Origin: an uncultured Acidimicrobiaceae bacterium
Lineage (GTDB): Bacteria > Actinomycetota > Acidimicrobiia > Acidimicrobiales > RAAP-2
Direction of reading: 5' to 3'
DNA length: 64,000 nucleotides
Assembly (NCBI GenBank): GCA_963805665.1
Contig: CAWDVF010000011.1
Span: 393,966 to 457,965, forward strand
Positions 28,876-30,501 of the stretch are shown here, piece after piece (position 1 is the stretch's first letter; each line of letters starts with the position of its first letter). The translations under genes were made by a program, and so were the position numbers. Under the pieces are notes generated by a model. That model had not been told where the DNA came from. It saw nothing but the letters and a program-made list of their open reading frames with translations, and did not search any database.

Positions 28876-29796
28876 CAAACTGTTAGCCCGACAACTTGTA
28901 TCTCATGCTCGGCAGCACTTGCTCGTGTGATGAACGCAGTCAGAGTCGTCACGGAGGGCGCCGGAACGTAAATCTGCAAGCCATCACGCTGCTTTCGCAC
29001 TGTGGTCTCTACTCCGACATCGCGTCGCATCACCTCTTGCAGAAGTTAGACCTCTGCCTGGGTGAAGCTCTGCGTGTTGAGGTACAGCCCACGACACTGG
29101 CTCGATTTTCTCGAGCCATCATCCATGAACCACACAGCCATGCTCAAAGGTGTGAGTTCGAGGTCTTCCGGAATCACCTTTCGGCGATCTCGATAGAACA
29201 CCAACCGAAATCCTTCGAGCTCGACATGCGAGAGGGTTGAAAACCCAACGTTTGTCGACGAGGTTCCGAGTCGGTTACGCCGAACTCTGGCCTTTGGTGG
29301 TGTGCGGACCCAATCTCGCCACTCGAGGTATTTCCAGTCGACATATGCCGTCTGGGCAACTGAGTGTTCGATCTTGAGCCTGGCCGTCAATGCGCCTGCC
29401 TGTCGCTCTAGATGCGCATCGCCGAGAAGCATCCCCACAAGGATTTGCTTCTGACGATCCGTTATCGTCAACGACGCCTTCTGCCTGCGCAGTGCCAGCG
29501 TGTTCATGGACGGAGTTGTCGTCTCGAGGTCATTTCTGCCTCGATCTGCATGTCGCCATGCAGTTCAGACCATTCCATCACCCGTCTTGCGACGGGGCTC
29601 TCGTTGTGGTCGTTGAGGTAGGTGGCAGAGCCACCCAACCTGCTGATTGTCCGCACTGGTCAGATTGTCACTGCCCATGTCATGCACCCTAAAGATGCGA
29701 TGTGACATGGATGAGTACTGCCAGATACTCGGGTGTTCCAGCATACGCCGAGAGTTTTATTTCACATGGTTTCCCATGATTCGCCCCATTTTGTTA
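28876..29796 (-). mobile_element. Group I intron (921 nt) in 23S rRNA after the U equivalent to E. coli U2262, carrying a double-motif LAGLIDADG ORF
   Basis: The exon GACTGGGGCGGTCGCCT|...|CCTAAAACGTAACGGAGGCGCC is continuous once 28876-29796 is removed. The 5' exon ends in U and the intron ends in G (..AACAGTTTG). A core block at 29641-29750 is shared with the third intron. Confidence 0.8.
29046..29507 (-). pseudogene. LAGLIDADG homing endonuclease, two-motif type, interrupted by an in-frame TAA (29046-29048)
   Basis: ORF 29046..29507 has motif 1 ILVGMLLGDAHL and motif 2 LSMAVWFMDDGS, ending ...LNTQSFTQAEV-stop. The same frame continues LLQEVMRRDVGVETTVRKQRDGLQIYVPAPSVTTLTAFI (track ORF 28749..29033), which looks like the expected C-terminal part, and then reads through the intron/exon boundary without a stop. 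Confidence 0.65.
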
Positions 29797-30127
29797 AGGC
29801 GACCGCCCCAGTCAAACTACCCACCTGACGCTGTTCCTGATCCGGATTACGGACCGAGGTTAGAGCTCCGGCACTAAAAGGGTGGTATTTCAAGGTTGAC
29901 TCCACACTGGCTAGCGCCAATGCTTCAAAGTCTCCCACCTATCCTACACAAACAGTACCAAAACTCAACATCAAGCTGTAGTAAAGGTCCACGGGGTCTT
30001 TCCGTCCTGATGCAGCTAACGAGCATCTTTACTCGTACTTCAATTTCGCCGGGTCTGTGGTTGAGACAGTAGGAAAGTCGTTACGCCATTCGTGCAGGTC
30101 GGAACTTACCCGACAAGGAATTTCGCT

Positions 30128-30501
30128 CATTCTGTTACATCCAATCAACAATGTTGTTTGCTGATTAGCGGACCGGTCGTTTCCGCCGGTCTCCCCACGT
30201 CGCCGTGGGGATCGGACCATAACTTCAACTCACAGGGACTACCTATATGGCCTGTGAGGTGGTCGGCGTTTGGTCTCTGAGGATTCTCAGGACTTCAGAT
30301 GGATCACTCCATTCGAAGACCAGAGTCTTTCCTGCTGATTGTCCGCACCGAACGGATTGTCACTACCCACATACAAACGATCAAGACCGCTTGTGACATG
30401 GATGAGTACCGTCGGATACTCGGAGTTTCCAGCATATGGCCGACTACTCACCGCGCCGTTACCGACACGGGGCAGCACCCATTGCACTCTATGGGAAATC
30501 T
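30128..30501 (-). mobile_element. ORF-less group I intron (374 nt) in 23S rRNA after the U equivalent to E. coli U1931
   Basis: The exon CGGTCCTAAGGT|...|AGCGAAATTCCTTGTCGGG is continuous once 30128-30501 is removed. The 5' exon ends in U and the intron ends in G (..AACAGAATG). A P7-like pair GCGGAC/GUCCGC lies at 30341-30346 with 30168-30173. Hairpins: CCCCACG-GCGA-CGUGGGG, CUCACAGG...CCUGUGAG, CUGAG-AAUC-CUCAG. No ORF carries nuclease motifs. Confidence 0.8.

Follow-up and report, generated by a model that had tools for sequence, protein, structure and literature searches.

Two group I introns in one 23S rRNA gene of an uncultured Acidimicrobiaceae bacterium probably share the scaffold domain of a large, multisite rRNA intron family

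Results

Three group I introns interrupt the 23S rRNA gene

The stretch of DNA analyzed here, referred to as the window, comprises 64,000 nucleotides (nt) from an uncultured Acidimicrobiaceae bacterium (GenBank assembly GCA_963805665.1, contig CAWDVF010000011.1, positions 393,966 to 457,965) and carries a ribosomal RNA (rRNA) operon on its minus strand, with the 16S gene at 34693-33171, the 23S gene at 32638-~27470, and the 5S gene at 27389-27273. We focus on the 23S rRNA gene (27470..32638; Rfam RF02541, 2322 bits), which is interrupted by three group I introns, and on a block of sequence that two of these introns have in common; all features given below lie on the minus strand unless stated otherwise. 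The four 23S exons (32638-30502, 30127-29797, 28875-28545, and 27803-~27470) were spliced by eye and aligned to E. coli rrlH. Their ends correspond to E. coli positions 1931, 2262, and 2593, in agreement with the insertion sites L1931, L2262, and L2593 named in a preliminary description of this DNA. At all three sites, U is the last base of the 5' exon and G the last base of the intron. The L1931 intron (30128..30501, 374 nt) has no open reading frame (ORF) and exceeds the cut-off of the Rfam model RF00028 (57.3 bits vs. 50, E = 6e-12). The L2262 intron (28876..29796, with boundaries taken from the alignment to E. coli rrlH) is 921 nt long, and the 741-nt L2593 intron (27804..28544) is of a different type, without the shared block.

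Judged from their sequences, the L1931 and L2262 introns both look like working ribozymes of one family. The predicted internal guide sequence of the L2262 intron, GGGCGA (29781..29786), is complementary to the 5' exon end UCGCCU, with a G·U pair at the splice site. P1 of the L1931 intron would comprise only about 5 bp (GGUAG/CUGCC); this intron also contains a P2-like hairpin with a GUAA loop, and its 3' end reads ...AAUG. The window introns are presumably self-splicing, and splicing is indirectly supported in that no other 23S gene was found in the assembly (3.76 Mb, 15 contigs, 56% complete by marker genes). This low completeness despite 3.76 Mb in 15 contigs is not peculiar to the window genome, since many members of the genus reach 56-93%, and the marker set may be poorly suited to the lineage.

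The L1931 and L2262 introns share one collinear block

Five short sequence blocks had been reported to recur in the L1931 and L2262 introns, and each of them indeed occurs exactly twice on the plus strand of the window (29641/30333, 29663/30355, 29701/30392, 29724/30415, and 29736/30427). The two segments that contain them are 77-80% identical across ~105-113 nt. Local alignment of the two introns returned a single 113-nt segment with a score of 100, compared with 20.6 ± 2.1 (maximum 27) for 100 shuffles, and a BLAST comparison of the L1931 intron with the whole 3.76-Mb assembly recovered only the intron itself and the L2262 block (77%, 106 nt, E = 7.7e-16). The shared block occupies positions 67-171 of the L1931 intron (30331..30435), where it runs through the 5' strand of P4, P5, P5a, P5b/c, an A-rich junction (AGUGACAAU), P5', and P4'; the same helices make up positions 53-158 of the L2262 intron (29639..29744). 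As had also been noted, the third intron lacks the blocks: L2593 aligned to L1931 scores 22, with shuffles at 19.8 ± 2.4, and L2593 and L2262 have in common only a 34-nt stretch of the P8/J8-7/P7 core.

The block is the P4-P5-P5abc-type scaffold domain

The block is a P4-P5-P5abc-type domain, the scaffold half of the group I ribozyme. We derived its structure by applying RNAalifold to an alignment of 122 non-identical block copies from related introns. On the RNA strand, the block starts with the 5' strand of P4 (UGCUGG) and ends with its 3' strand (UCAGCA). Between these lie P5 (UCCG/CGGA, replaced by ACCG/CGGU in the L2604 introns), a long-range P5a helix of seven pairs with one bulge (CCGGCGG/CCG-U-CCGG), a UACU/AGUG continuation, a distal helix, and a variable hairpin. 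Covariation is abundant in the long-range helix, with four pair types at several positions; one pair, for instance, is GC in 82 sequences, UA in 20, CG in 15, and AU in 4, and another is GC in 78 and CG in 43. The sequence differences between the two window introns had been assigned to the loop of a hairpin formed by GAGUAUC and GUACUC. Instead, the differing bases, CGACG and UGGCA, are part of the 5' strand of the long-range helix, and the changes are compensated ~55 nt downstream (CCGUUCGG vs. CUGACCAG).

Two local pairings were considered and discarded. Among the 122 sequences, changes in the 5' arm of the GAGUAUC/GUACUC hairpin (U to A or C; G27 to C) go uncompensated, with a UC mismatch in 43/122 at one pair and AA or CA in 27/122 at another. 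For the UGUCAC/GUGACA pairing within the block, four different bases (C, A, U, G) occur at the fifth position of GUGAMA, likewise without compensation. Read by eye, AGUGAMAAU appears to be an unpaired junction.

Homology extends along the whole ribozyme

An end-to-end alignment of the ORF-less relatives and of L2262 introns from which the ORF had been removed revealed that L1931 and L2262 are homologous over their full length, including P3, P6, P7, P8, P9, P9.1, and the 3' UAACA tail. The 5' strand of P3 is GUCGGC in L1931 (30439..30444), pairing with GCCGAC at 30262-30267, and CUCUCG in L2262 (29749..29754), pairing with CGAGAG at 29598-29603, i.e., the helix is fully compensated between the two introns. 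The 3' core of L1931 (30171..30282) consists of J6/7-P7 (CCUCAGAGACCA), P3', P8, J8/7-P7' (UAUGGUCCGA), a P9 hairpin with a GCGA loop, and P9.1 (GGCGGAAACGACC), and that of L2262 (29524..29618) of J6/7-P7 (CCUCAACGACCA), P3', P8, J8/7-P7' (AAUGGUCUGA), P9 (CUGCAUGGCGACAUGCAG), and P9.1 (GGCAGAAAUGACC). In the family as a whole, J6/7-P7 reads CCUCAGAGACY (CCUCAACGACC in L2262) and J8/7-P7' reads GAAGAUAYRGUCCGA (GAUGGAAUGGUCUGA in L2262); P3', P8, the P9 hairpin with its GCGA loop, P9.1 (GGCRGAAAYGACC), and a 3' GUAACA...G tail are family-wide as well.

RNAalifold applied to 39 ORF-less family members recovered P3, P4, P5, P5a, P5b, P9, and P9.1, with 38/64 pairs covarying. P7 (GACYR/YRGUC) pairs in 39/39 sequences, with CG/UA and AU/GC switches, and the group I core helices P3-P9 with the P3/P7 pseudoknot are supported by covariation in this set. 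When compensatory and other changes were counted on the consensus structure, as had been suggested earlier, the window pair displayed 36 identical pairs, 14 changes compensated in both strands, 3 one-sided changes, and 10 apparent losses of pairing, most of which are MAFFT misalignments in P3 and P8.

The block marks an intron family spread over many sites and phyla

Matches to the L1931 intron were found in 16/40 related genomes, often several per 23S gene. Exon boundaries mapped at 18 matching loci place introns at L1911, L1923, L1931, L2262, L2593, and L2604, and all of the intron types mapped at these loci except L2593 contain the block. The 23S gene of genome G003 (locus L011, 6932-10674) has five introns (L1911, L1923, L1931, L2262, and L2593), with micro-exons of 12 nt (1912-1923) and 8 nt (1924-1931). 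Across this locus and loci L012-L028, the intron set varies between species of the genus, with up to five introns per 23S gene.

A search with a degenerate block pattern (27 specified bases) across a 185,579-species genome collection returned at least 120 matching stretches. The matches listed stem mostly from Acidimicrobiaceae/Acidimicrobiia long-read metagenome-assembled genomes (MAGs) labelled MFD, and the others from Solirubrobacterales, Acidobacteriota, Patescibacteria, Gammaproteobacteria, Armatimonadetes, Gemmatimonadota, a Spirochaetaceae bin, and two Woesearchaeota. Among the listed matches, the block occurs in introns at L1911, L1917, L1923, L1931, L2262, L2604, and one 16S site (intron boundaries at loci L093, L076, L031, and L100 were set by hand or the loci left out). 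The blocks, which had been taken as the mark of a special paralogy within one gene, are thus a family-wide P4-P5 scaffold found at seven sites in at least eight phyla.

Within a sample of 151 Acidimicrobiaceae genomes, block-only matches of 74-83% identity occur in 39 genomes from 15 genera, and six further genomes contain full-length L2262 matches at 85-92%. Orthologues of the L2262 intron were identified in genomes G003 and G012 and at loci L053, L085, and L088; the same-site orthologues of the L1931 intron are 85-91% identical over their full length.

Several features of individual family members deserve mention. The 16S introns (loci L030, L047, L066, L071, and L087) are inserted after ...GAAGUCGU and before AACAAGGUA, a site that we take to lie near E. 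coli position 1498; their hosts are Actinomycetota, Solirubrobacterales, and Acidiferrales MAGs, and some of the introns have an ORF of ~270 aa. 16S genes with such introns would be missed or mis-sized in surveys based on 16S polymerase chain reaction (PCR). The two Woesearchaeota MAGs (loci L094 and L096) have, in archaeal 23S genes, L1931 introns that contain this block together with a LAGLIDADG_1 ORF; six exon bases pair with their guide GCCUUA, compared with ~3 exon bp in Acidimicrobiaceae L1931 introns. A number of Acidimicrobiaceae L1931 introns end in ...GAACA|AGCG, with A in place of the terminal G (loci L012, L018, L020, L022, and L023, from genomes G004, G011, G012, G018, and G019), and a terminal A is likewise seen at loci L048, L049, L064, L081, L088, and L106. 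In G012, G018, and L064, no shift of the boundary recovers a terminal G.

The window introns are no more alike than other members of the family

Given this wide distribution, the similarity of the window pair has to be read against the family background. In the alignment of 122 blocks, conservation reaches 90% or more in 45 of 105 columns, and these conserved columns account for 44 of the 80 columns at which the window pair is identical. Over the 60 variable columns, the window pair has an identity of 0.60, the same as the 0.60 ± 0.10 of 1220 between-site Acidimicrobiaceae pairs, 61% of which are equally or more alike; no similarity above the family background was found in these columns. Nor is there a general excess of block similarity within genomes over that between genomes (0.54 vs. 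0.50), one Solirubrobacterales genome excepted. Split into partitions, the window pair reaches 77% identity in the block, 27% in the 5' region, and 48% in the 3' part. Between the window L1931 intron and introns at other sites, identity is 65-85% for the block and 53-62% for the 3' part; with its orthologue in G012, the window L1931 intron shares 88% (5'), 94% (block), and 85% (3'). The window L2262 intron and its orthologue at locus L053 are only 76% identical in the block, with 90% and 87% in the flanking parts, which suggests that ~75% is close to the floor for this domain.

Phylogenetic analysis points in the same direction. In a full-length tree of 39 ORF-less or ORF-trimmed introns (311 columns), the insertion site changes 7 times, where 6 is the minimum and shuffled labels give a mean of 23.7. 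The L2262 (100/100), L1911 (98/90), 16S-site (100/98), and L2604 (94/78) introns form clades, and the window L1931 intron groups with G012 and G011a inside the L1931 group. Since the 5' guide region could converge by site, it was dropped, and the 3' part alone again required 7 site changes. Forcing the window pair to be sisters costs 168.6 log-likelihood units and is rejected by the approximately unbiased (AU) test (p = 3.6e-10); their sisterhood is also rejected in the 3' core of a 112-sequence set (p = 0.016). Forcing the L1931 and L2262 lineages as wholes together costs 5.5 units (p = 0.245). Contrary to the paralogy that had been suggested, the two introns are therefore not each other's closest relatives; their nearest relatives are same-site introns elsewhere (85-91% for L1931, 85-92% for L2262). 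Taken together, the common origin proposed in the preliminary description stands insofar as both introns are homologous members of one group I family, as indicated by helix order, P7, P9, P9.1, the 3' tail, and the 14 compensatory changes. The special paralogy within one gene that it implied was not borne out, given the family-wide block, the closer same-site introns, and the rejected sisterhood.

Different endonuclease genes in different loops

The P9.2 loop of the L2262 intron contains a truncated LAGLIDADG_2 ORF of 153 aa (29046..29507; PF03161, E = 2.3e-33, profile positions 1-132 of 168), which is ended by a window-specific in-frame TAA at a codon where the orthologues have CAG or TAC. 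P9.2, the last hairpin, closes directly in the ORF-less 310-nt L2262 intron of locus L053. The ORF that occupies the corresponding place in an Armatimonadetes L2262 intron is 41% identical to it (E = 2e-35), and a Saccharibacteria L2262 intron has the same ORF layout. The orthologous ORFs in G003, G012, and L085 are distinguished by 1-nt indels, and that of L088 is half-deleted by a large internal deletion; the LAGLIDADG_2 gene seems to be decaying in several species.

In G004, G018, and G019, the L1931 orthologues have a LAGLIDADG_1 gene in P6 (PF00961, E = 8e-21), which is absent from the window copy. Its frame crosses the P4' strand (...GADNQQER...) and continues into J6/7-P7, an arrangement also seen in L1911, L1917, L1923, and L2604 introns. 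L1931 copies with and without the ORF are interleaved within the genus, and we infer that the window L1931 intron lost its endonuclease gene rather than never having gained one. The two introns had been thought to descend from one mobile element of which one copy lost, or never gained, the endonuclease gene. The genes of the two lineages, however, differ in family and position (PF03161 in P9.2 vs. PF00961 in P6), and two endonuclease families in two loops imply that the L1931 and L2262 lineages were mobilized independently. The L2593 intron contains an ORF of its own, a LAGLIDADG_1 gene of 205 aa (27843..28460; PF00961, E = 3.2e-7, 31.6 bits vs. a cut-off of 23.1).

Discussion

We consider it probable (roughly 0.8) that the two similar segments are the P4-P5-P5abc-type scaffold of two introns from one large rRNA intron family, which belong to separate, site-adapted lineages. 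The block would be the slowest-evolving part of the family, with ~45/105 columns nearly invariant and most others held by base pairing, so that any two members are 65-85% alike in the block though the remainder is only ~50% identical. The L1931 lineage would normally carry a single-motif LAGLIDADG_1 gene in P6, gone from the window copy, and the L2262 lineage a LAGLIDADG_2 gene in the P9.2 loop, shortened in the window copy by a stop codon. Each intron, with its own guide sequence and its own P3, would have come to occupy its own site in this genome through descent or through homing from relatives. The lineages would then have to have been founded by an ancient transposition between sites, outside the present gene copy; such an ancient site switch somewhere in the family is plausible because the L1931 and L2262 groups are not rejected as sister lineages.

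Some observations weigh against this interpretation. With its few columns, the block by itself does not reject the window pair as sisters (AU p = 0.34). For the same 112 introns, the block tree requires 35 site changes vs. 16 for the 3'-core tree, and the Acidimicrobiaceae L2262 blocks sit among Acidimicrobiia L1923/L1931/L1911 blocks, apart from the L2262 blocks of Armatimonadetes and Saccharibacteria. In addition, a permissive scan with RF00028 gives no match at E <= 1 for the L2262 intron, nor for the L2593 intron. The model is probably broken by the ORFs and long P5 or P9 inserts of these two introns, and the group I membership of L2262 hence rests on the helix evidence. How far do these points favor other explanations? 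One scenario, a recent form of the spread proposed in the preliminary description, is that one intron recently spread between sites in this gene or genome, by reverse splicing or ectopic homing, and that one copy then lost its endonuclease. The collinear blocks of 77-80% identity, the residence of both introns in one gene, and the block-only AU test would all fit. Nevertheless, the sisterhood that it entails is rejected for the full ribozyme as well as for the 3' core, several sister species have same-site orthologues of both introns at 85-93%, identity outside the block is only 27-48% with the block itself at family background, and the endonuclease genes belong to different Pfam families in different loops, all of which makes a recent spread very improbable. 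Even less credible is that the resemblance arose by chance or by convergence of unrelated ribozymes under one structural constraint. While ~40% of the block columns are functionally constrained across the family, the alignment score lies ~38 standard deviations above shuffles, the similarity extends to unpaired junctions such as AGUGACAAU, and the two introns have in common, along their whole length, the loop sequences of P9 and P9.1 as well as the 3' UAACA tail.

A different reading of the discordant block tree is that the domain itself moved. The Acidimicrobiaceae L2262 intron would have kept a cross-phylum 3' core together with LAGLIDADG_2 and, in an ancestor of the family Acidimicrobiaceae, received its block from a co-resident L1911/L1923/L1931-type intron through recombination or gene conversion. 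The shared block would then reflect lateral transfer between introns of one gene, with no duplication of a whole intron. The L2262 introns of Armatimonadetes and Saccharibacteria have the J6/7 (CAAC) and P7' (GUCUGAAC) peculiar to L2262 and a homologous ORF (41% identity), whereas their P5 extension differs in architecture by an extra hairpin; this, the position of the Acidimicrobiaceae L2262 blocks inside the Acidimicrobiia L19xx cluster, and the excess of site changes in the block tree speak for such an exchange. There is also precedent within the family. At locus L071 (5202-5893; Solirubrobacterales MAG CAVWAX010000001.1), the introns at L1917 and L1931 share 97% identity in the block but only 56% in the 3' part and 45% in the 5' part, which looks like recent gene conversion between neighboring introns. 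These two introns lie 14 nt apart in one gene, and further family members are present at L2604 and in the 16S gene of the same locus. Similarly, the L1923 intron of genome G010 (locus L017, 7349-8197) has an L1911-type 5' end, comprising the P2 hairpin and the P3 strand. It lacks the GGCUGUU guide of other L1923 introns, its ORF is split into several frames, and it is either a recombinant, probably decaying, or an assembly chimera.

On the other side, the AU test does not reject a single clade of all eight L2262 blocks (p = 0.19). Nor are the L2262 introns of different phyla united by the 3'-core tree, which places those of Acidimicrobiaceae with L1911 (97/99), although monophyly is again not rejected (p = 0.35). 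Peripheral P5 elements of group I introns often gain or lose hairpins without recombination. Moreover, any such exchange would predate the genus, since the window pair is no more alike than background, and the window itself shows no sign of recent block exchange. We therefore regard an origin of the L2262 block by exchange, and with it the lateral transfer of the shared block, as doubtful. The data do suggest that co-resident introns are able to exchange their scaffold domain, but for the L2262 lineage the signal is not significant. It is conceivable, if still on the unlikely side, that P4-P5abc is more generally an exchangeable module among the introns of one rRNA gene, with the Acidimicrobiaceae L2262 intron a chimera of an old core and LAGLIDADG_2 with a local block, and with the block recently homogenized in at least one Solirubrobacterales gene. 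If true, this would amount to concerted evolution of a ribozyme domain between non-allelic bacterial introns.

The window introns can be compared with what has been described for bacterial and organellar introns. Introns at L1917, L1931, and L2593 with single-motif LAGLIDADG genes are known from Thermotoga, Simkania, cyanobacteria, and organelles, where they have a complex P5, core-overlapping ORFs, and site-specific clades (PMC1995217); those at L1917 and L1931 were called IC1-like with a complex P5 (Haugen 2007, PMC1995217). Compared by description, the introns studied here have in common with them the site after U1931, the complex P5 extension, clustering by ribosomal DNA (rDNA) site across hosts, and, in relatives of the window L1931 intron, an ORF in P6 that reaches the core helices. 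They differ in that the window L1931 intron has no ORF and that its host is an uncultured Acidimicrobiaceae MAG. In contrast to the cyanobacterial introns, which are described as lacking P2 (PMC1995217), the window L1931 intron has its P2-like hairpin with a GUAA loop. Multiple group I introns per 23S gene are otherwise documented for the candidate phyla radiation (CPR)/Patescibacteria, in domains IV and V, at sites including 1917, 1931, 2593, and 2604, and with LAGLIDADG_1 (Tsurumaki et al. 2024, PMC11270868). The patescibacterial matches of our pattern carry the same block, whereas the hosts reported here are Actinomycetota and other non-CPR phyla; according to the same study, rRNA introns are confined to a few non-CPR species. 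Its main text does not mention sites 2262 and 1911, and in the open literature searched we found no mention of group I introns at L2262 or L1911. In the publication on the long-read MAGs, the word "intron" does not appear.

Spread by reverse splicing is usually argued, on circumstantial grounds, from related introns that occupy different rDNA sites (Bhattacharya et al. 2005, PMC1299323; Hausner et al. 2014, PMC3984707). The nuclear rDNA introns discussed there resemble the present family in having homologous ribozymes at several rRNA sites, site-matched guides, and an origin attributed to ectopic transposition. They are eukaryotic, however, whereas the lineages described here are old site lineages, each tied to its own endonuclease family.

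A bacterial parallel is offered by Coxiella, where a 23S intron reportedly lacks the terminal G. As far as the title of that 2007 paper goes, the likeness comprises several introns, very short exons, a single-copy 23S gene, and the missing terminal G of many Acidimicrobiaceae L1931 relatives; the window L1931 intron itself, by contrast, ends in G.

These results call for caution in reading similarity between co-resident introns: an identity of 75-80% in the P4-P6 half is a floor set by ribozyme constraint and alone is no proof of recent duplication. With the window introns, a known kind of intron gains new members, in hosts for which it appears not to have been described; among long-read MAGs from soil, those of Acidimicrobiaceae and other non-CPR bacteria have as many as five group I introns in one 23S gene, with six 23S sites and one 16S site in use. 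With one ribozyme family at many sites, with and without an endonuclease, these genomes provide material for the study of site change, gene gain and loss, and domain recombination.

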